From positions 3,648,001 through 3,712,000 of the forward strand of contig OY969695.1 of the NCBI GenBank assembly GCA_963701965.1: a stretch of DNA of 64,000 nt, in the 5' to 3' direction. This DNA is from an uncultured Gemmatimonadales bacterium (lineage in GTDB: Bacteria > Gemmatimonadota > Gemmatimonadetes > Gemmatimonadales > Gemmatimonadaceae). Both the position numbers and the translations under genes were made by a program. Position 1 is the first letter of the stretch. Each line of letters starts with the position of its first letter. Below the pieces are notes generated by a model. It had not been told where the DNA came from. It saw only the letters and a list, made by a program, of their open reading frames with translations, and ran no database searches. Below are positions 1-60,913 of this stretch, piece by piece.

Positions 1-148
1 AATGCGCCGCATCCGCGATCGTCGCTGCGCTCTGGGTCGTCGCCGCGCGCGCGGGTGCGATATCCTCTCGCACGGCGTCCGCTTGCGCAGCAATCCACCC
101 GCCCATCGTCAGAAAGACGGCGATGAGCACCACGTCCGTTCGCTTCAT
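1..148 (-). CDS. N-terminal part of a secreted/membrane-anchored hypothetical protein, truncated by the window edge
   Basis: Manual translation from ATG at 148: MKRTDVVLIAVFLTMGGWIAAQADAVREDIAPARAATTQSAA..., basic N-terminus plus hydrophobic stretch; open to position 1; absent from the ORF track. Confidence 0.6.
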   Translation of the reverse strand, partial: MKRTDVVLIAVFLTMGGWIAAQADAVREDIAPARAATTQSAATIADAAH

Positions 149-49588: not shown

Positions 49589-50740
49589 TTGACGAAAACT
49601 GAAGTGACGTTCGACGCCCTCGGCCTCCGTGCCGAGGTGCTCGCGGCGGTGCGTGACGCTGGGTATACGCACCCCACACCGATACAACTAGAGGCCATTC
49701 CGCTCGCCCTGCGCGGGCGCGACTTGATCGGCCTCGCCCAGACGGGCACTGGCAAGACCGCTGCATTTACGCTGCCGATCATCGACCGGATCATCGACGG
49801 TCCACGGCGCACGCGGGTGCTCATCCTCACGCCGACGCGCGAGTTGGCGGCGCAGGTGGAGGAGAGCTTCACCAAGTACAGTAGAGGCAGCGGCCTCTCC
49901 GTCGTCGCGGTGTACGGCGGCGTGGCTCTCGACCCGCAGGAAAAGAAGCTGCGGCGCGGGGTCGACGTGGTCGTCGCGACGCCGGGCCGGCTGCTCGATC
50001 ACCTGGAGCGCGGCAACGTGTCGTTCGCCGATCTCGAGGTCTTGGTGCTCGACGAAGCCGACCGCATGCTCGACATGGGATTCGCGCCCCAGATCAACCG
50101 GGTCGTGTCGCAGATCCCACACTACCGGCAGACGCTCTTGTTCAGCGCGACAATGCCGCCCGAAGTCGAGGCCCTGGCGCGGAAATACCTCCGAAAACCC
50201 CAGGTCGTGCAGGTGGGACGCCGCTCGGAAGCGGCCAGCACCGTGACGCACGCGGTCTATCCGGTGCCGCGCGAAAAGAAGAGCGCCTTGTTGATCGAGC
50301 TGCTCAAGAAAGACGACATGGATTCCGTGCTCGTGTTCACGCGCACGAAGCACGGCGCCGACCGCGTCGTCCGGCATCTCGAGCGCGGCGGGATCGACGC
50401 GACCGCGATGCACGCCGACAAGTCGCAAGGGCAGCGCACGAAGGCGCTCGAGGACTTCAAGAGCGGCCGCGTGCGGGTTTTGGTGGCCACCGACATCGCG
50501 CAGCGCGGTCTCGACATCTCGGGCATCTCGCACGTCATCAACTACGACGTCCCGCAACAGCCCGAGGACTATGTGCACCGCATCGGCCGCACGGGCCGCG
50601 CGGCGCAGACGGGCAATGCGTTCACGTTCATGTCGACCGACGAGATCGCAATGGTGCGTACGATCGAGCGCATTATCGGGCAGCAAATTCAGCGTATCTC
50701 TGTCCCGGGGTACGATTTCGGCACCGTCGCGGCCGACTAG
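49589..50740 (+). CDS. DEAD-box RNA helicase (RhlE-like)
   Basis: Q motif PTPIQ, AQTGTGKT, PTRELA, DEAD, SAT, HRIGRTGR; start at 49589 or 49604. Confidence 0.95.
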   Translation: MTKTEVTFDALGLRAEVLAAVRDAGYTHPTPIQLEAIPLALRGRDLIGLAQTGTGKTAAFTLPIIDRIIDGPRRTRVLILTPTRELAAQVEESFTKYSRGSGLSVVAVYGGVALDPQEKKLRRGVDVVVATPGRLLDHLERGNVSFADLEVLVLDEADRMLDMGFAPQINRVVSQIPHYRQTLLFSATMPPEVEALARKYLRKPQVVQVGRRSEAASTVTHAVYPVPREKKSALLIELLKKDDMDSVLVFTRTKHGADRVVRHLERGGIDATAMHADKSQGQRTKALEDFKSGRVRVLVATDIAQRGLDISGISHVINYDVPQQPEDYVHRIGRTGRAAQTGNAFTFMSTDEIAMVRTIERIIGQQIQRISVPGYDFGTVAAD

Positions 50741-50744
50741 CCGG

Positions 50745-53202
50745 ATGCGCATGCGCGCCTTGCGCGGCCTTGTCGCGCTCTGCGCGCTGCTGCTGGCGGC
50801 GCCGGCCTTCGCGCAGGATTCGCTCATCACGTGGGGCCCGCTGCCCCCCGGCACGCCGCACGGAGAGCGGAAGCGCACGTTTGACCTGCAGCATCAAGTC
50901 GTCCACGTGCGGTTCGACTGGGCGCGTCACGCCGTCGTCGGCGCGACATCCCTCACGGTCGCCGGCCTGGCCGACGCCCCGACGCGCGACGTGGCGATCA
51001 ATGCCGTCGGGATGCGCATCAACGCCGTCACCGCCACCGGCGGTGCGGCGCTGCCCCACGAGTATGACGGCAAGACGCTGACGGTCAGACTGCCCAGCGC
51101 GCTCAGAGTAGGGAGACCGGTGACATTCACCGTGGCCTACGAGACGGTCAAGCCCAAGAAGGGCGCGTATTTCATCGATCGGCGCCACGTCGTGTGGACG
51201 CAGGGCGAAATGGAAGACACCCGATACTGGGTGCCGACCTACGACGAGCCGAACGACAAGGAGACCTGGGAGTTTTTCGTCCGGACAGCCCGCACCGAGA
51301 AGGCGCTCTCCAACGGGCGGCTCGCGGGCTCCCGCGACGTCGACGGCGAGACGGAATGGCACTGGGTGCAGGACACGCCGGCGTCCACGTATCTCATGAC
51401 GGCGGTCACGGGCGACTACGTCGTGGTGCAGGACAAATGGCACACCGTGCCGCTCGGCTACTGGACGTATCCGGACTCGGTCGCGGCCGCCTGGCGAGGG
51501 TTCGGGGAGACGCCGCACGCCGTGGATCTCTTCTCGACGAAGACGGGCGTCGATTATCCGTGGGCCAAGTACGATCAGATCGTGGCGCCGGACTACATCT
51601 TCGGCGGGATGGAGAACGTCACGGCCACCACGCAAAACGACGATGAGATCCTGCACCCGGCGTGGGCGGAGCCGGACGCCAACGCGGTGGATCTCATGTC
51701 CCACGAGCTGGGGCACCAGTGGTATGGCGACTTCCTGACGATGGCCTCTTGGAAGGACGCGTGGCTCAACGAAGGCTTCGCGACTTTCATGGAGGAGTAC
51801 TACCGCGAAGCAGCCCACGGCGCCGATGAGGGCACGCGCGACCGCATGGAGGCGCAGGACCAGATCGTGGCCGCGGACCGCCAAGCGCGGCGCCCGGTCG
51901 TCTACGATCGGTGGGTCAACGACCCGCTGGAGTTGTTCACGATCATCTATCCGAAGGGCGCCACCGTCCTCCAGATGCTCCGGCACCAGCTCGGCGACTC
52001 GACGTTCTGGGCGGCCATGCACCGCTACACGGTCGATCACGCGCATGGCGTCGTCACCACCGCGGATTTCGAGAAATCGGTGGAGCAGGCCACGGGGCGC
52101 GATCTGGCGACGTTCTTCCGCCAGTGGGTCTACGGGGCCGGCCTGCCGGCGTTCCGCGTGTCGGCGACGTACGACTCGGCCGCCCATCAGGTCACGTTCA
52201 CCGCCCGCCAGGTCCAGCCGCGCGACAGCCTCACGGGGTTTTTCGACGCCGACGTGGACGTGGCCGTCTACACGGACCACGGCGTGACGCGGGCCGTCGT
52301 TCCGGTGCACGGCGAGGTGTCGACCGCGGTTGTCGCCGCCAATGGTGCGCCACGGGCGCTCCGGTGGGACGTCGGGCGGTGGGTGCTTCAGGTCTATGAT
52401 TTTCCGCGGACGACGCCGATGCTGGCGTACCAGCTGGCGCACGATGATGACGTGGCGGGGCGCATCGAAGCGGTGAACCTGTTGGCGCACTCCACCGATC
52501 CCACCGCGGGCGCGGCGATCGCCGACGCGGGCACACACAATGCGTTTTGGTCCGTGCGGGCAACGGCCGCGCGCGCGCTGCACGCGTCGCGCGATTCTAC
52601 GGCCGTGCGCGCGCTGCTGTCCGCGGCGAACGATCGCGATTCCCGCGTGCGCGAAGCGGCGGCCACGGCGCTGGGTGCTGGTGGCGCCTCAACCCCCGCG
52701 GTACTGGCACGCCTCACCGCGATGGCCAGCGGCGATTCGTCGCTCTACGCGCGGGGCGAGGCGTTGTTCACCCTGGCGCGCCTCGACACGGCGGCCGCGA
52801 TGCCCCTGATCCGCGCGGCGCTGGGCGTCGATTCGTGGATGGACCTGGAACGCGTCTCGGCGCTGGGCGCGCTCGCGCTCACGCATTCGCCAGAATGCGT
52901 TCGCGCTGGCCGCGCGCTTCACGGGACCCAACGCGACGCGATTCGCGCGCTTGGCGGCGATTCAACCGCTGGTGCAATCGGCGCGTGAGACATGCCGACA
53001 GGCGGATGCGTTGGCCGCGCTCACCCCGAGCCTCGGCGATCGCGATCTCTTCGTGCGCGAAGCCGCGGCCCAGGCGCTCGGCACCCTCGGCTCCCAGGGC
53101 AGCGTGGAGCCGCTGGAATCGCGGAAACGCGTGGAAGCCGAGGGCCGCGTCCTCACCGCCATCGACGATGCCCTTGCGGCGATCCGCGCGGGGAGCCATT
53201 AG
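50745..53202 (+). CDS. M1 family aminopeptidase with C-terminal HEAT repeats; apparent 1-bp insertion near 52896
   Basis: GGMEN, HELGH (HExxH), WLNEGFA; HEAT repeats continue in the next frame to 53202 (DRDLFVREAAAQALG); first frame stops at 52988. Confidence 0.88.
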
Positions 53203-53246: not shown

Positions 53247-53810
53247 ATGGTACTGCGCCGGCTGTTGTCCTGTGTCGAGCTCGCGCTGGCCGTTGCCTTT
53301 GTGGCGGCCAGCGGCTGTGTCTTGAGCTCGGCGCTGCCGGCCACCGCGGCGGCCCAACACCCGCGCCCCACCCCTCCGCCGCCCCCGCCCAAACCGGTGC
53401 CGCGGGCCGTGCACCCAAAGGCCCTGCCCGCTCAGCCCCAGGTCAGTGCGCCGCAGAACGGTGCGCTCAAGAACGGCCTCCCGCAGGGCACCCGCGTGAT
53501 GCCGGAGGAAGGCTCGAGCGTGCCCCATCCGCCGCCCCACCCGTGGGAGTCGCGCAACACCGACATCCCCGCGGCCGAACGGCCGCCGCCGGGCCAGTGC
53601 CGCGTCTGGCTCAACAACGTGCCGGCCGGCAGCCAACCGGCCCCCACGACGTGCAGCCGGGCGATCCAGATGCGCCCGCCCAACGGGCGCGTGGTCTTCG
53701 GCGACGACACGCGCCGGCCGACGGCCACGCGCGTCCCGCCGGCCTCGGGCGGCTCGGAATCCACGCCGGTGCCGGCACCGCCTGGCGACCGGCCTCAGGG
53801 CGAGCAGTAA
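53247..53810 (+). CDS. Proline-rich secreted hypothetical protein
   Basis: Signal-peptide-like N-terminus; PPPGQCRVW...PAGSQPAPTTC two-Cys module. Confidence 0.7.
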   Translation: MVLRRLLSCVELALAVAFVAASGCVLSSALPATAAAQHPRPTPPPPPPKPVPRAVHPKALPAQPQVSAPQNGALKNGLPQGTRVMPEEGSSVPHPPPHPWESRNTDIPAAERPPPGQCRVWLNNVPAGSQPAPTTCSRAIQMRPPNGRVVFGDDTRRPTATRVPPASGGSESTPVPAPPGDRPQGEQ

Positions 53811-53813
53811 GCG

Positions 53814-56234
53814 TTACTCGCCCCGCAACGCTCTGGCTGGGTCAATCTTGGTCGCGCGTTGGGCTGGAATGATTGTGGCGGCAAGGGTCACCAGCGCCAT
53901 GAGTGCAGCCGCCCCCGCGAAAACCTGCGGATCGCTGGGGCTCGTGTCGTATAGCATGCTTTGTAGCACCTGCGTGGCGACGTAGGCACCAGCGAGCCCT
54001 AACGCGACGCCAGCGCCGACAATCACGAGCGCCGAGCGCAGATGCTCCACGAGCACGCGGCGCCGTGCTGCGCCCAACGCCATCCGAATGCCTATCTCCG
54101 TGGTGCTCTCATGAACGAGGTACGAGACGACCCCATAGAGGCCCACGGCGGCAATCACGAGGCTCATGATAGCGAACGCGCCAAACACGACTGCGTTGGT
54201 CCGAAGCGGGGAGAGCCTACGTTCGCGCACCGCGGTCATACTCGTCACACCGACGACGGGTGCCGTCGGAAGAGAGCTCCTGACGACCGAACGGACGGCA
54301 CTCACGAGACTCGCGGACGGGCCGGCGGTACGAACGAAGATGCGCAGGTGCGTCGTACCGACTTGGGCCAGAGGACGATAAAGAACCGGGTTGTAGTGCC
54401 GGATCGCGCTCAACGCGCCGTCTGGGGCCGGCTCGCCAGCAATGCCAACGATCGTCATCCAAGGCGATGGGCTCGATGGTGGCCCGAATCTGATTCGCCT
54501 GCCGATCGCATTTTCGCGCGGAAAGAGACTCCGGGCGGTGGAATCCGACAGTATCGCGACGGGTGGTGCCAGAGGGCCGTCCACAGTGGAGAACTCTCGG
54601 CCGCGAATGGGGAGCGTCGTGACAGTTCGGAAATATCCGGCTGAAATCACCTCTGCGGATGTCGGCACGGCGGAGCCGGAAAGCATCGCTCGGTCACCCT
54701 CGCGTGTCATACCTTCCGCATCCGGGTCTGAAGCGGCTCCTCGACCAGCCACTCCTTGCACGCCCGGCAATCCGGAGAGGCGCTGCAACAGCTCGAAGGC
54801 GGTAACCCGTTGGTCCGTTGCCTGATTGCCATGGCGTTTGGTCAAGTCTACCAGGCCGGTGACGAGCTGCCCTTCGGCTAAGCCGGTGTTTCTGCTTGCC
54901 GCCCTGAGGAAGGACTTTCCGAGGAGTCCTGCGCACGTCAGCAATACCAAGGTGCAGGCCATCTGAGCGCAGAGGATGTGACGGCGTGTCGTCATGGCGC
55001 TCCTCGTAAGGCCCGACGAGAGATCTGTCCGCGTCAGAACATGCGCGCCTCCGTTCGTTGCGATGATCGCGGGCCACACGCTGGCAGCCAGCGCGCTTAG
55101 CGCCGAGGCTGCCAGCGCGAATACGAGCACGCGTGCGTCGATCGTAAAGCGCGTCCAATACGGTATGTCCCGGGCAGGCAACGCATACGCCAACCGGATG
55201 CCCCAGACCGACAGCGCTACGCCAATGGCGCCGCCCGCCATCGATACACAGACTCCCTCGGCGAGCAGCTCCCTCCACACTCTTGCTCGCGGAGCGCCCA
55301 GCGCCATGCGGATCGCGATCTCGCGTCGCCGAGCGCTGAATCGGGCCACGAACAATCCGGCGAGGTTGCCGCAAGCGACGGCAAGCACGAGGATGACGGC
55401 ACCCAAGAAAAGGGGATACGACGCCGTATACTCCCGGGCGAACAAGTAGCGGAGCGAGTGTACCGTCGGACGCGCCGGCGGTCGGAGAAGAGTCGAGACC
55501 CGCGATTGCAATTGGGCCGAACTGTATCCAGCCCCGAGACGACCCACGACGCGAGCCTCGGCTGGCGGCCGGTCGTGGGCGCCGACCTCGGACGACGCCA
55601 GCGCGATGAAGAACGGGACTCCGGGAGAGATGGCCGGGTCATCCACATCGAGGATGGGCCTGCCGACCGGCAGATCACGCGCCGCAACACCAACCACGCG
55701 GTACGTGCGATTGTCTAGGGACACCGAGCTGCCGATGACCGTCGAGTCGCCGTGGAACGCGTCCTGCCAGAACGCGTGACTCAGCACCATCACCAATTGC
55801 GCCGAGGCGCGATCGTCATCTGCCGTCAATCCACGGCCAAGGGCGGGGCGAAGCCCCAACAATGAGAAGAAGTTGCCCGACACGGCGGCTCCGACGCCGT
55901 AGGTCGTCTCGAATCGCGTGCTGAGCACGCCCCAATACTCGACGCCGTAGGCAACGTCCGCGACAGGGCCCAGATGGTCGCTCCACTGCGGCAGGTCTGA
56001 CGGTGGAATGGGGATCGAGCAGCCGTTGACGCAGGCGTGGCCGGGCGTGACCTGCTGGGCCATGACCAGGAGTGACGCATCGCGATATGGAAGCGGCCGG
56101 AAATACACGGCGTTCACGATGCTGAATACCACCGTGCATGCCGCGACGCCGAGCGCGATCAGGGACGCCGCGACGACTACGAAGCTCGGGGTTCGAGTCA
56201 GCGCTCGAATGGCGTATCGAAAATCTCGTCCCAT
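53814..56234 (-). CDS. Duplicated MacB/FtsX-type ABC permease (ADOP-like orphan permease)
   Basis: DFRYAIRAL, two EIxIRMALGA motifs, two extracytoplasmic domains, IPAQRATKIDPARALR; no ATPase gene adjacent. Confidence 0.92.
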   Translation of the reverse strand: MGRDFRYAIRALTRTPSFVVVAASLIALGVAACTVVFSIVNAVYFRPLPYRDASLLVMAQQVTPGHACVNGCSIPIPPSDLPQWSDHLGPVADVAYGVEYWGVLSTRFETTYGVGAAVSGNFFSLLGLRPALGRGLTADDDRASAQLVMVLSHAFWQDAFHGDSTVIGSSVSLDNRTYRVVGVAARDLPVGRPILDVDDPAISPGVPFFIALASSEVGAHDRPPAEARVVGRLGAGYSSAQLQSRVSTLLRPPARPTVHSLRYLFAREYTASYPLFLGAVILVLAVACGNLAGLFVARFSARRREIAIRMALGAPRARVWRELLAEGVCVSMAGGAIGVALSVWGIRLAYALPARDIPYWTRFTIDARVLVFALAASALSALAASVWPAIIATNGGAHVLTRTDLSSGLTRSAMTTRRHILCAQMACTLVLLTCAGLLGKSFLRAASRNTGLAEGQLVTGLVDLTKRHGNQATDQRVTAFELLQRLSGLPGVQGVAGRGAASDPDAEGMTREGDRAMLSGSAVPTSAEVISAGYFRTVTTLPIRGREFSTVDGPLAPPVAILSDSTARSLFPRENAIGRRIRFGPPSSPSPWMTIVGIAGEPAPDGALSAIRHYNPVLYRPLAQVGTTHLRIFVRTAGPSASLVSAVRSVVRSSLPTAPVVGVTSMTAVRERRLSPLRTNAVVFGAFAIMSLVIAAVGLYGVVSYLVHESTTEIGIRMALGAARRRVLVEHLRSALVIVGAGVALGLAGAYVATQVLQSMLYDTSPSDPQVFAGAAALMALVTLAATIIPAQRATKIDPARALRGE

Positions 56235-56298
56235 CGCCGCCGTGGTGGAGCGAAGATCAGTCTACGGCACCCCAGGCAGACCATCAAGGTTCAGAGTT

Positions 56299-56952
56299 TC
56301 ACCGCTCCGCAGCCATGGTACGCACCAGGCTGTCCAACATCTTTTGACTCTCGCTGTTGTAACCGAGCATGAGCACGTTATTGACCAGAAAGGTCGGTGT
56401 GCCTCGAACGGTGAGCGCCGTCGCCGCGAGAGTATCGCGCACCACGATCCTGGCTGCCGAGTCGTCCGTCAGACACCGAACGAACGTCAATGTGTCGTTG
56501 ATCCCGGCCATACGGGCGAATCTGACCCATGGCAATTTGCCGATCGCATCGGCGTGCGCGTAGAGGACGTCGTGCATGGCTTCGAAGGCTCCTTGTCGGG
56601 CAGCACACTCCGACGCCACGGCCGCGAGGAATGAGAACTCGTGGCCAGGGTAGTGGCGATAGATGACGGCGACATCGTTTGGGTGCTGCTGCCTGATCGC
56701 ACTCAGGCCGGCCACGGCGCGCCGGCAAAACGGGCACTGATAGTCGGCGAATTCTACGATGGTGACCGGTGCCCTTTGCGGACCGACGCGATTCCCGGCC
56801 GTGCCATATTGCTTCCAGTCTCGCACCAAGCGCGGAGCCAGAGGGTCCGCCGGTGCGTGATGGAAGCGTAGGCCCGTGATGACCAGCGCGGACAACACCA
56901 GGAGGCCAATGGCGCCATCTACGATCCACCGCAGCACGGCCCGAGCGGGCAT
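56299..56952 (-). CDS. DsbA/thioredoxin-fold disulfide oxidoreductase with N-terminal membrane anchor
   Basis: APVTIVEFADYQCPFC, YRHYP, VRGTPTFLVN; ATG overlaps the upstream peptide stop (TGATG). Confidence 0.9.
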   Translation of the reverse strand: MPARAVLRWIVDGAIGLLVLSALVITGLRFHHAPADPLAPRLVRDWKQYGTAGNRVGPQRAPVTIVEFADYQCPFCRRAVAGLSAIRQQHPNDVAVIYRHYPGHEFSFLAAVASECAARQGAFEAMHDVLYAHADAIGKLPWVRFARMAGINDTLTFVRCLTDDSAARIVVRDTLAATALTVRGTPTFLVNNVLMLGYNSESQKMLDSLVRTMAAER

Positions 56953-57143
56953 CAGCCGCACATGTTCTCGGGGTGGAAGCAGACAACGCACCCGTCCGCG
57001 CCACAATTGGACGAGTTTGAGCAGGGAATCGGGCAGAGCTTTCGTGCGTGAGAGGGGGCTTGTTGTTGGGCGGCCACGGGACGCGAACGGCCGGCAGCAA
57101 TGAGGGCAACCGAGGCGAGAATCAGGAGAAACCTGCGCGTCAT
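56952..57143 (-). CDS. Secreted six-cysteine peptide (knottin-like), 63 aa
   Basis: MTRRFLLILASVALIAAGRSRPVAA|QQQAPSHARKLCPIPCSNSSNCGADGCVVCFHPENMCG; GGAG Shine-Dalgarno; stop/start overlap with the DsbA-like gene. Confidence 0.8.
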   Translation of the reverse strand: MTRRFLLILASVALIAAGRSRPVAAQQQAPSHARKLCPIPCSNSSNCGADGCVVCFHPENMCG

Positions 57144-57281
57144 ACCTACTCCGGGTCGGGGTACCTGACGCTAGCCCATGGTTGTGGCAGCTCCGAGTTC
57201 GTCTCCAAGCGAGAATATGAAGCGTGGACGGCACAGATCTGCCGCATTCACGTACTTTTCGTCGATGGTCCGCCAAGCCCA

Positions 57282-59885
57282 ATGACACGTAAGCCGGTCG
57301 ACCGCTTCCTGCCGCCGGACCACGCGGCGTTCGTCGCGGCCGAGCCGCCGACGGGCCGCGTCATCGTCATCGCGCCGACGCGCGCCGCCTGCGAGACGAT
57401 CGAGCTGGCCCTGGGCCTCCAGCTGGACACGTTCCTGGAGCGCGAGCACGGCGCCGATGTGCGGCGTCTCGCGGCATCGCGGCAGGGGTTCGGCATCGTG
57501 GCCGGCACGGGCACCGGCAAGACGCTGGCGATTCGCCCGATCGCCGAGGCGATTCTGCGCGCGCCGCTCCGCGTCGGGGTCGTCAACCGCGAGCGCGAGG
57601 CGACGCCGGAGACGCCGACGTGGAACGTCGTCATCGTGACGACCGGCATCGCCCGCCGCTGGTTTCAGGCCGGCGACATCCTGCCGACCGATACGCTGGT
57701 CGTCGACGAGATTCACCAGACGTCGGCCGAATTGGAGCTCTGTCTCGCCCTCGGTCTTCGAACAGGATGCCGCTTCATCTGGCTCTCGGCGACCGTCGAC
57801 CCCCGCTTCTACGCGCGCTATCTCGGATCGGCCGAAGTGATCGAGAGCACGGCGTTCGATCCGACGAAGGCGGCGCGGGTGACCATCGTGCGGAAGGATC
57901 CGACGGAGTTTCTGGACGACAAGTTCCTGAAAGACGTCGCCCGCGAGAAGCGCGGCGTCGGCGTGTTTCTTCCGACGCGGGCCATCGTCGAGCAGGTGGC
58001 CGAGGACGTGGCGACGAAATTTCCGCGCATCAATGCCGCCTACTATCACGGCGGTGAGCCGATCCGCGTCATCCGCCCCTTTCTCGAAACCGACGACGCG
58101 CGGCCCTACGTGCTGGCGATGACGGCCGCGGGGCAAAGTGCGCTCAACGTCCGCGGGTTGAACACGGTCGTCATCGACGACACGCGCTTTACCAACGTCA
58201 TCGAGCGCGGGCGCAACGTACTCACCCGCCTCCATCTCGGTGCCAACGAGATCCTGCAGATGGCGGGACGGGTGCACGGCCGCGTCGCGGGCGGGCGCGT
58301 GTTCATCCTGTCCGACCGCGACATCCACTTCGCGGCGCTCCGGCCGGTAGAGCCGGAGTTCCAGCTGGCGGGCGACTCCGAGCGGGTCGCGCTGGCCTGC
58401 GCCGCGCTGGGCGTCCGGGCCGACGAGCTGGATCTGCCGGTGCCACTCGACCGGCCGGCGTACCGGCGCGCCGTGGACCTGTTGGAGTGGCGGGGCATTA
58501 TCGAAGCGGGGCGACTCACGGCCTACGGGCGCGCCATCGAGTCGCTGCCCGTGGAGCGGGCGTGGGCCGAGTTGGTGGTGAACGCCGAGGATGACCTGCT
58601 GCCCGTCGTGGCGGTGATGAGCGCCATCGAGTCGCTGCACCGGATGACGCGCGACGAGCGCGACCTGAGCGGATTGATCGTGGCCGGCAGCGACCATCTC
58701 TCGGCGTATAACGTGTACGCCGAGGCGTTCCGCCTCCACGGGTCCATAGGAGAAGTCTACGGACTGCCCCGGCACGTCTTCGCTCCCGAGCTCGACGAGT
58801 GGGCGGAGCGCCGCGGCGTGCTCGTCAAGGCGATCGAGGACGCGGCGTTGGGCGTGGCCAGCGTGTATCGCAGCGTCGCCCTGCCACTGCCGGCCGATCT
58901 TCCCCCGGCGCGCGATGCGACGTTCCGCAAATTCGCGGATCTCCTCGCCCGGTTCATGCCCTTCGATCTCGTGATCGACGAGGAGACGGCCGACGGACAG
59001 CCGGCCCGCGTCTCGCGGAGCAGCGTCGCCGGGAGCTGGGGGGCCATCGCCGGCACCCTCCGCTATTTCGCGGACAAGTTCGGCATCGCGCGCGCCGCCA
59101 TCGAAGGGACCCAGGTCTCCATGGATCTCATCCGCCGATACGCGCGTCGCTCGGCGCCCGAGGTCGTGTACGACGCGAGCCGCAAGCATCAGGCACTCGT
59201 GGTCCGACGCCGGCTGGAGTACTTCGGGTTCGAGCTCGAGCGCGAGACAGAGTCCCTGGAGGACTTTGGCGAGCAGGCCGACGCGGCGCGCGATGCCCTC
59301 GCCGGGGCGCTCGCCTCCGGTGAAGCGCGCCATCCCGCCGTCCGTCGCCATCAGCGCGTGGTCGACGAGATCCGGGACGCGTATCGTCGCTCCGGCGGCC
59401 AGACGCCGCGGCTCGGCGCCGCCGAGTTGGCCGCGCTGTATCGGCGCGCACTCGAACCCGTCGGCTCCTACGCTGAATTTCGTAGTGCGCCGCTGACCAT
59501 CGATCTCGACGCGGTGCTCGCGCCGGAGGCGCGGCACCGCTATCGCGATCTGCCGTCCGAGGCCATGGTGCGCGGGCAGAGCGTCCCGATCGACTACGAT
59601 GTCGAGGAGACGGAACGCGGTCCGCTCGGGGTGGCCCGGTTGAGGCTCCCGGCAAAAATTGCGCGCACGTTGACCGAGGCCGAGCTACCGGTGCTGGATC
59701 GGCCGCTCCGCTTCATCGTCACCCGCGGCCAGCTCGGCGCCGTGCGCGCCGATACGCTCGACGCGCTGCAGGACAAGCTCGACGAGCCCTGGTCGCCGCC
59801 CAAGCGCGCGCGGCCCCACCCGAACCCGAACCTCCGGCACGGCAAGCACGCCAAGCACCACAAGCGCGGCCGTCGCCGGCGGTAG
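57282..59885 (+). CDS. DExH-box helicase (HrpA/HrpB-like)
   Basis: AGTGTGKT, DEIH, SAT, FLPT, QMAGRVHGR, HA2-like LTAYGRAIESLPV. Confidence 0.88.
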   Translation: MTRKPVDRFLPPDHAAFVAAEPPTGRVIVIAPTRAACETIELALGLQLDTFLEREHGADVRRLAASRQGFGIVAGTGTGKTLAIRPIAEAILRAPLRVGVVNREREATPETPTWNVVIVTTGIARRWFQAGDILPTDTLVVDEIHQTSAELELCLALGLRTGCRFIWLSATVDPRFYARYLGSAEVIESTAFDPTKAARVTIVRKDPTEFLDDKFLKDVAREKRGVGVFLPTRAIVEQVAEDVATKFPRINAAYYHGGEPIRVIRPFLETDDARPYVLAMTAAGQSALNVRGLNTVVIDDTRFTNVIERGRNVLTRLHLGANEILQMAGRVHGRVAGGRVFILSDRDIHFAALRPVEPEFQLAGDSERVALACAALGVRADELDLPVPLDRPAYRRAVDLLEWRGIIEAGRLTAYGRAIESLPVERAWAELVVNAEDDLLPVVAVMSAIESLHRMTRDERDLSGLIVAGSDHLSAYNVYAEAFRLHGSIGEVYGLPRHVFAPELDEWAERRGVLVKAIEDAALGVASVYRSVALPLPADLPPARDATFRKFADLLARFMPFDLVIDEETADGQPARVSRSSVAGSWGAIAGTLRYFADKFGIARAAIEGTQVSMDLIRRYARRSAPEVVYDASRKHQALVVRRRLEYFGFELERETESLEDFGEQADAARDALAGALASGEARHPAVRRHQRVVDEIRDAYRRSGGQTPRLGAAELAALYRRALEPVGSYAEFRSAPLTIDLDAVLAPEARHRYRDLPSEAMVRGQSVPIDYDVEETERGPLGVARLRLPAKIARTLTEAELPVLDRPLRFIVTRGQLGAVRADTLDALQDKLDEPWSPPKRARPHPNPNLRHGKHAKHHKRGRRRR

Positions 59886-59953: not shown

Positions 59954-60913
59954 TTACTGGACCTGCCAGGCACCGCCTTTCTCGGACGCTCCCACGTATC
60001 CCAGGACAAGATCCCAAGATTCGACAGCGTGACGTATTGCCTCACTGGACTGTGCTGTGTTGCGATCCACGGAGTGTCGATCATAGCCGTGGGTGACCCA
60101 CGTCGATAGGGCACGGAGGGCGAGTTCTTTTGGCAATTCGCACAGGTCGTCGAAATACCAAACCAGGAATGTGTCCAACACTCGCAGGGCGGCTATCGCG
60201 TTGTCAGCATTCCAGTCCGTTGGGACGCGACTGAATTTGAGCTTCGGAAAAAGGTCGATCTTCGTCGGCCGTGTATTGATTGGTCTCACCCTTACCTTGA
60301 TGTGCACATTCTCGTTCCGTAGCTCCGTCAATTCTCCCAATGCTTTTGTTCGCGAATCTGTGCGAGGAAGGGCCTTATCGGGCCGGCGTAGCTGCAGGAA
60401 GAAGTCGAGTTTGTCGAGCATCGACAACTTCTCCAGGCCTGTTTCCAGGCTCTTTGCAAAGCCGAGGTGATGTAGCAGCGCGTTGGCGGCGGCCTCCGGC
60501 AGCAGGGCGGTAACCCTCATGCTCGCACGGGCATTGAGAGAAGAATATCTCTTGTCGCCCGAAGCCTCGGAGAGCCTCGCGAGATTCACGGCGTCCTCAA
60601 CGGTGGAAATGAAGCTAGCGATTTCGACCACCTGATTTGGTCGCGTCGCCGGCCAGGGTTTTGGCTTTCGCGGTGGCAACAATGGTCGAATGCGCTCCGC
60701 AATGTCATCGATGACCCCATTTCCAGATCGCCGTGTCTGCGACCACAATCTATCGAGCATGTCCCACGTGAATCCGAAGGGCTGGCCGAAGAGGCTCCTC
60801 GCCGCGGACGCGTGAGCTGCTGCCATTTCTGTTGGACTCGAGGGGGAAACGGCGGTCCGTTCGACGCTCTCCCATTCTTCCGGAGTCAAGGGTGAGTCGA
60901 AGTGCACGCGCAT
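59954..60913 (-). CDS. Hypothetical protein with atypical, AT-richer codon usage
   Basis: 319-aa ORF filling the gap between the helicase and dacB; no motif recognised. Confidence 0.7.
   Translation of the reverse strand: MRVHFDSPLTPEEWESVERTAVSPSSPTEMAAAHASAARSLFGQPFGFTWDMLDRLWSQTRRSGNGVIDDIAERIRPLLPPRKPKPWPATRPNQVVEIASFISTVEDAVNLARLSEASGDKRYSSLNARASMRVTALLPEAAANALLHHLGFAKSLETGLEKLSMLDKLDFFLQLRRPDKALPRTDSRTKALGELTELRNENVHIKVRVRPINTRPTKIDLFPKLKFSRVPTDWNADNAIAALRVLDTFLVWYFDDLCELPKELALRALSTWVTHGYDRHSVDRNTAQSSEAIRHAVESWDLVLGYVGASEKGGAWQVQ

Follow-up and report, generated by a model that had tools for sequence, protein, structure and literature searches.

A predicted cystine-knot miniprotein encoded with a DsbA-family oxidoreductase in an inserted cassette of a Gemmatimonadales bacterium

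In the genome of an uncultured Gemmatimonadales bacterium, we analyzed a 64,000-nucleotide stretch of contig OY969695.1 (positions 3,648,001 to 3,712,000; hereafter the window) and focused on a short open reading frame (ORF) that opens a three-gene cassette, followed by genes for a DsbA-family oxidoreductase and an ADOP-family permease. All three genes share one direction. Taken together, we judge it somewhat probable that the ORF encodes a likely exported six-cysteine miniprotein with a predicted knot, carried in an inserted DsbA/ADOP cassette, and that outside the cell this peptide probably acts as a stable ligand specific to the strain.

The peptide gene and its precursor

The original prediction described an ORF with a Shine-Dalgarno sequence, a Sec-type signal, a linker starting QQQ and a six-cysteine core, and all of these can be read in the sequence as described. 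The ORF (window 56952-57143, minus strand, from a frame reading of the window) has 63 codons. Its N-terminus is basic-hydrophobic and leads to VAA, followed by an 11-residue linker that begins QQQ and by the core C-x3-C-x5-C-x4-C-x2-C-x6-C-G-stop, which has a net charge of -2. The precursor comprises, with its ribosome site:

57149..57152, minus strand: Shine-Dalgarno-like GGAG, 5 nt upstream of the ATG, read from the sequence
57069..57143, minus strand: predicted Sec signal peptide, residues 1-25, ending V-A-A, from a sequence reading
57036..57068, minus strand: variable linker of the mature peptide, residues 26-36, the first 7 residues of low model confidence
56952..57035, minus strand: six-cysteine core 3-5-4-2-6, single terminal Gly and TGA stop, from the sequence, with a model confidence score (pLDDT) of ~80 and knottins as Foldseek rows

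Sequence comparison confirms that the peptide ORF is a real bacterial gene. Its frame and cysteines are preserved in homologues, and GGAG or GGAGG also precedes homologous peptide ORFs. The homologue in G004, one of five same-genus genomes, is 49% identical to the window peptide and has six residues in loop 3 (locus L002). Between L002 and a metagenome variant, L080, synonymous divergence (dS) is 0.13 and nonsynonymous divergence (dN) 0.03; between the window peptide gene and L002, synonymous sites are saturated and dN is 0.46. A spurious ORF is ruled out by this conservation and by dN/dS. Scanned in all six frames, the 5.1-Mb genome has a single instance of the narrow motif C-x3-C-x5-C-x(3-6)-C-x2-C-x(4-13)-C, whereas a loose knottin-type pattern close to a stop turns up 18 times, so that loose spacing alone is little proof. 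The peptide is also the sole six-cysteine member among 38 short genomic ORFs with a hydrophobic N-terminus and at least four late cysteines.

Conservation did not extend to two details of the original prediction. Instead of the QQQ start, L002 and L080 have a single Q after the predicted cleavage site and the related peptide at locus L195 has none, and the RK pair proposed as a processing site is not retained in homologues. Because these features are not conserved, we dropped both pyroglutamate formation and RK processing.

A word-index search with the peptide gave no matches, a two-sequence profile searched in this way recovered a near-copy of L002 alone, and the two-sequence profile found no full-length match in 400 genomes of the phylum besides the window's own. 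Its weaker matches in those genomes (E 1e-4 and up) were rejected as mostly signal-like stretches. Two of five metagenome loci, L079 and L080, proved to be true homologues; the other three, L081-L083, have neither the framework nor a DsbA gene and were discarded. The ESM Atlas gave no usable named match and two unnamed clusters at 0.81 and 0.78, which we treat as a lead only. An NCBIfam GspL match (E 0.18) and DAHP-synthase matches in the PDB were dismissed as chance.

No sigma-70 promoter-like site was detected at the locus, and terminators stood at chance level. Among the sequencing runs listed for this sequence none was of RNA, and one DNA run contained it with a 0.06 share. The neighboring helicase gene more likely starts at ATG 57282 than at GTG 57048, which would place ~140 bases of divergent promoter region ahead of the peptide gene.

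A DsbA lineage linked to cysteine-rich peptides

The TGA of the peptide gene overlaps the ATG of the second cassette gene (junction TGATG):

56299..56952, minus strand: DsbA-family oxidoreductase, 217 residues, with an N-terminal hydrophobic anchor and a TPT loop (Pfam Thioredoxin_4 E 1e-19, DSBA E 3e-16)
56725-56736, minus strand: CPFC active site of the cassette DsbA, from the sequence

We gathered 201 DsbA loci, 177 of them distinct, and graded them by a cassette DsbA profile built from 13 proteins, most of which had been picked for adjoining such peptides. A peptide qualified if it lay on the same strand within 1.5 kb and had a ribosome site, a signal and at least six cysteines; an ATG start was required, so some were missed. 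Qualifying peptides stand at 45 of the 72 loci scoring at least 200 bits (37 of 59 outside the training set), at 5 of 38 scoring 160-200 bits and at 2 of 67 below 160. A DsbA-family gene is hence linked to, and co-inherited with, the peptide precursor, and from this genomic association the cassette DsbA is likely a dedicated disulfide-forming enzyme for the peptide. Cassette-type DsbA genes occur in 48 of 400 genomes of the family at E 1e-60, and the wider DsbA group carries exported-type peptides with 6, 8 and 10 cysteines. The cysteine count is even in 65 of 68 cassette peptides, a statistic that kinship inflates, and even counts fit the expectation for disulfide-bonded proteins.

This set of 68 includes four hand-added peptides (L195, L237, L239 and L243) and leaves out four myxobacterial loci as another family. 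The latter (L101:4119-4466, L108:4091-4429, L111:4115-4459 and L129:4081-4419) encode a conserved 8-cysteine protein with spacing 5-5-14-3-5-5-22..25, which lies ~550 bases upstream of a generic DsbA and forms a separate family. At L175, L196, L197 and L199, one DsbA gene accompanies each tandem pair of related, diverged cysteine-rich peptides.

Both of our DsbA trees were built with FastTree. In the first, of 176 DsbA domains, the window DsbA falls within a clade of seven (support 0.98). We call a peptide knottin-compatible if its loop lengths lie within ranges that we set ourselves as typical of knottins; the window core 3-5-4-2-6 satisfies this rule. Six of the seven clade loci carry knottin-compatible peptides, and the seventh, L195, initially had no called peptide; re-inspected, it has a GTG-start peptide with spacing 3-5-4-2-13 and 39% identity to the window peptide. 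When the clade DsbA profile was run over 400 genomes of the order, it matched 12 others at E 1e-62; three had E-values below 1e-80, and of these only L237 was new. The L237 peptide has spacing 5-6-3-2-10, and its DsbA joins the clade with support 0.95. Knottin-compatible spacing is thus found at 8 of 8 loci inside the DsbA subclade versus 2 of 60 outside (2 of 16 when only 6-7-cysteine peptides are counted); random loop lengths satisfy the rule in 8% of cases. We set the rule after seeing some of the peptides, and two pairs are closely related. L195 and L237 were both discovered after the clade was drawn. Similar small ORFs upstream of homologous DsbA genes, which the original prediction had named as a check, are accordingly present at all eight subclade loci. 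Unlike the wider DsbA-peptide group, the window's branch has knottin-type spacing, a leader motif of its own and mostly an ADOP gene in third place.

Individual loci show further variation. The L084 peptide has spacing 6-5-0-3-8, with adjacent cysteines, and is identical to a peptide of G430, a genome flagged as unpublished, on which its DsbA/permease context rests. At L237 (G151), an in-frame TAG stop interrupts the DsbA gene next to the knottin-spaced peptide. At L087/L194, the genes after a knottin-spaced peptide are two for DsbA, one for a PadR regulator and one for an ADOP of the window's clade, and an ECF-type sigma factor is encoded upstream.

Peptide family and predicted fold

A profile of eight peptides, searched against 1.84 billion proteins (E up to 0.001; clustering at 50% identity), yielded 56 clusters, relatives of the queries included. 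Six cysteines are present in 43 of the 56, and 42 satisfy the spacing rule, a count that is partly circular given that the profile was made from knottin-spaced peptides. Across 57 family proteins, the leader is the best-conserved portion apart from the cysteines (M96, K74, R75, L79 and W77, in percent) and the loops vary. The six-cysteine members divide into C-x2-C (27), C-x1-C (11) and adjacent-CC (6) types, which we take to correspond to potato carboxypeptidase inhibitor (PCI), squash inhibitors and venom knottins. The core is acidic in 51 of the 57 proteins, and 25 of the 57 have a one-residue tail after the last cysteine. Ten clusters that we checked are unnamed singletons or 'hypothetical protein'. 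By its sequences, this peptide family is large and highly variable.

One subfamily has seven cysteines with spacing 11-3-0-3-2-7 (L203:3238-3447; P0006, P0009, P0010, P0034, P0035, P0039 and P0057). It keeps the same leader and has a DGHY motif, and a first-loop histidine is conserved in most members; its odd cysteine suggests metal binding or a dimer.

For the window peptide itself, a role as a periplasmic copper- or zinc-binding peptide, with thiols held reduced by the DsbA-fold protein, appears very unlikely. A histidine two residues past the fifth cysteine is present in every one of five close homologues, and an acidic core and a CxxC pair would suit a metal ligand. Yet no more than about one in four members of the wider family keeps this histidine, loop lengths vary freely, CxxC-F-H differs from the CxxCH haem motif, and the even cysteine counts of the cassette peptides point to disulfides.

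Structure prediction suggests that the window peptide likely adopts a cystine-knot fold. The model has a pLDDT of 71.6, and in Foldseek all 12 listed rows are knottins, the best with probability 0.84 and a root-mean-square deviation of 2.0 over 29 residues, with no significant match. Sequence comparisons with the PDB point the same way: the matches of the mature window peptide are PCI or PCI-scaffold chains (6 of 6, E 0.33-1.7), those of L002 are the PCI scaffold and tomato 2HLG (5 of 5), and the single match of L084 is a venom peptide (E 0.039). Among 53 relatives, 8 have weak matches to knottin-type Pfam models (Squash, Conotoxin, Toxin_21, Toxin_27, Toxin_29 and UPF0506), all below cut-off; the window peptide matched 0 Pfam families at E up to 10. 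A disulfide-bonded but unknotted peptide, whether defensin-like, trefoil-like or of another three-disulfide fold, would account for the lack of a significant structural match, for the many other frameworks within the wider cassette class and for weak Pfam matches to an AtDEF-like model (3 of 53 family proteins, one of them also among the 8 knottin-type matchers) and, at L195, to trefoil. We nevertheless consider it distinctly unlikely, as one leader spans three spacing types, each of a kind seen in knottins, and the sequence and structure matches of the window peptide are exclusively knottins.

The resemblance to PCI noted in the original prediction is real, in that every PDB match of the window peptide is of this kind, and weak, in that none has a convincing E-value. 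PCI and the tomato cystine-knot miniproteins (MEROPS I37; PDB 1H20, 4CPA, 7EQZ and 2HLG) share with the window peptide a signal-type precursor, a knot (predicted here), six cysteines, loops 3-5-x-2-6, a proline before the second cysteine and a terminal C-G. An alignment with PCI over 33 residues has 12 identities, six of them outside the cysteines, and L002 has 8 of its first 12 residues in common with 2HLG, as might be expected of a transferred true relative that inhibits metallocarboxypeptidases. The window peptide departs from the I37 consensus CxxxCxxxxDCxxxxxCxxC (PMC10687636), however, with N rather than D before the third cysteine and a loop 3 of four residues rather than five. It is also bacterial and encoded with an oxidase and a permease. 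PCI inhibits through a hydrophobic tail that enters the enzyme's active site (PMC10687636). The window peptide has a lone Gly after its last cysteine, and this missing tail argues against carboxypeptidase inhibition. The plant inhibitor Pfam profile is matched neither by the window peptide (E up to 10), which answers the scan against this family that the original prediction had proposed, nor by the 53 relatives (E up to 0.1). PCI-like spacing, moreover, is one of several, in 8 of 56 clusters; a particular link with the potato protein is therefore unlikely, and true kinship with the plant inhibitors extremely improbable. The tail, consensus and profile results back the earlier suggestion of a different function. 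What stands of the predicted secreted three-disulfide knot miniprotein is a secreted-type, disulfide-rich peptide with a likely knot fold; its PCI-like framing was too narrow.

Another parallel is offered by the broader class of inhibitor cystine knots (squash inhibitors, cyclotides, and cone-snail, spider and scorpion knottins), which combine a conserved leader with variable cysteine-framed cores, as here, although the cores of this family are mostly acidic. The 2018 KNOTTIN database paper reports bacterial knottin sequences, none with an experimental structure (PMC5753296), and a PDB survey finds knot-like chains rare in bacteria (PMC4491269).

The inserted cassette, its permease and a proposed route of export

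The third cassette gene, the limits of the cassette and its flanking genes are as follows:

53814..56234, minus strand: ADOP-family duplicated MacB/FtsX-type permease, 806 residues, without an ATPase domain (TIGR03434, 652 bits, cut-off 622)
53770..57281, no strand assigned: approximate inserted cassette, lower in GC, from the similarity break against same-genus genomes and from GC content at third codon positions (GC3)
53247..53810, plus strand: proline-rich ORF, a host gene outside the cassette, its 3' part conserved beside the helicase in relatives; no Pfam match
57282..59885, plus strand: HrpB-like helicase, a host gene outside the cassette

Similarity to all five same-genus genomes ends near 53710-53770 and restarts at 57283-57299; in all five, the proline-rich gene and the helicase adjoin and the cassette genes are missing between them. 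GC3 is 0.71-0.76 in the three cassette genes versus 0.85-0.87 in three flanking genes, and in G004 the cassette sits at a different site, beside folate and pantothenate genes. Because it is absent between these flanks in relatives, lower in GC3 and located elsewhere in G004, we regard the cassette as a moving insert. The ends of the insert showed no conspicuous terminal repeats.

The ADOP gene begins 64 bases after DsbA. Its product scores above the curated cut-off and has two MacB/FtsX halves and no ATPase. It groups with the permeases of L034, L080, L229 and L194 (support 1.00), apart from the 32 other full-length copies in its own genome, which holds 33 full-length ADOP-like permeases in all. 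An ADOP gene lies downstream of DsbA at 5 of 8 clade loci, with the third gene scanned at all but L237; the one at L084 is unrelated to the window's ADOP clade, and the third gene at L086 is a weak propeller match and that at L195 a solute-binding protein. Across the DsbA survey, an ADOP gene comes next at 11 of the 51 loci that bear a peptide, at 3 of the 27 that score high but have no called peptide and at 0 of the 96 low scorers. Neither an ATPase nor an adaptor nor an outer-membrane channel is encoded by the three cassette genes; elsewhere, the genome encodes VKOR, adaptors and TolC-type proteins.

These parts suggest a route from gene to target. Its first step is observed, namely three genes in one direction, the overlap of peptide stop and DsbA start, and joint inheritance. 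The precursor would then be exported by Sec and cut by signal peptidase after VAA. The membrane-anchored DsbA, re-oxidized probably by the genome's VKOR, would form three disulfides and sort them into the 1-4, 2-5, 3-6 knot. In the weakest step, the ADOP permease may collect the folded peptide in the periplasm and eject it as MacAB-TolC does Escherichia coli heat-stable enterotoxin II (STII), with an ATPase, adaptor and TolC-type channel borrowed from elsewhere in the genome. Outside, the knot would display its variable loops to an extracellular protein target, in signaling or in competition among strains. The acidic cores speak against killing by membrane disruption.

Instead, the folded peptide could remain periplasmic and tune binding or sensing by the third cassette protein, whose small partner, plug or cognate ligand it would be. 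The third gene switches (ADOP, a likely propeller or a solute-binding protein) while peptide and DsbA persist, the ADOP clade tracks the knottin-type peptide even at L087/L194, where the DsbA lies outside the subclade, and the cassette brings no export machinery besides the permease; each of these favors a periplasmic partner. Against it weigh the adaptors and channels found elsewhere in the genome and the variable cores under a constant leader, a pattern typical of ligands under outside selection. We hold this alternative to be unlikely, though worth keeping in view, and prefer an extracellular ligand.

The precedent for such a ligand's export is the STII route of Sec, DsbA and MacAB-TolC (PMC5985334). 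The window cassette resembles it in the predicted Sec signal, the proposed periplasmic disulfide formation by DsbA and a MacB-type permease as proposed last step. STII has two disulfides and relies on housekeeping DsbA and MacB, whereas the window cassette brings its own oxidase and permease, the latter in doubled form and without an ATPase. The parallel implies no toxin activity for the window peptide.

Sublancin, with BdbAB, has a bacteriocin cluster that includes its own DsbA-like oxidase. So does TMcin, where TmcD is required for the product's disulfide (PMC13712780). Precursor peptide, cluster-encoded DsbA, transporter and mobile unit are common to TMcin and the window cassette, but TMcin is a membrane peptide with a single disulfide whose cluster has a protease and an ABC exporter, while the window cassette has a predicted Sec leader, three predicted disulfides and neither a protease nor an immunity gene.

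Neither knottins nor peptide clusters that include a DsbA gene are new; what is added here is the family-level picture. In literature searches at the level of titles and abstract openings, mostly of open papers, we found no published description of the cassette or the peptide family. Knottins are prized drug and engineering scaffolds and come mostly from plants, animals and fungi. The family numbers 56 or more divergent sequences, has a fixed leader and is linked to an oxidase, which makes knot-tying by bacteria in vivo testable; one can also ask whether a specialized DsbA improves knottin folding in bacterial hosts. The family also opens the question of what the numerous ADOP permeases carry or sense. 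It is possible, and we propose it only tentatively, that Gemmatimonadota have a knottin superfamily of their own, with one leader, venom-like variable cores, plant- and animal-type spacings, a knot-tying DsbA lineage and an orphan MacB-type exporter. If so, the knot would be an independent bacterial invention, there would be a first class of substrates for ADOP permeases, and bacteria would offer a natural foldase for knottins.

Two further features lie near the cassette. The M1 aminopeptidase gene at window 50571-53202 has an apparent frameshift near 52900-52990, from a sequencing error or a recent break; its HEAT tail carries on in the ORF 52951-53202, and similarity to relatives reaches 53195. 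Just beyond the helicase, on the minus strand, a 319-residue ORF (59954-60913) with a GC content of ~0.56 and no Pfam or NCBIfam match is likely a second insert.
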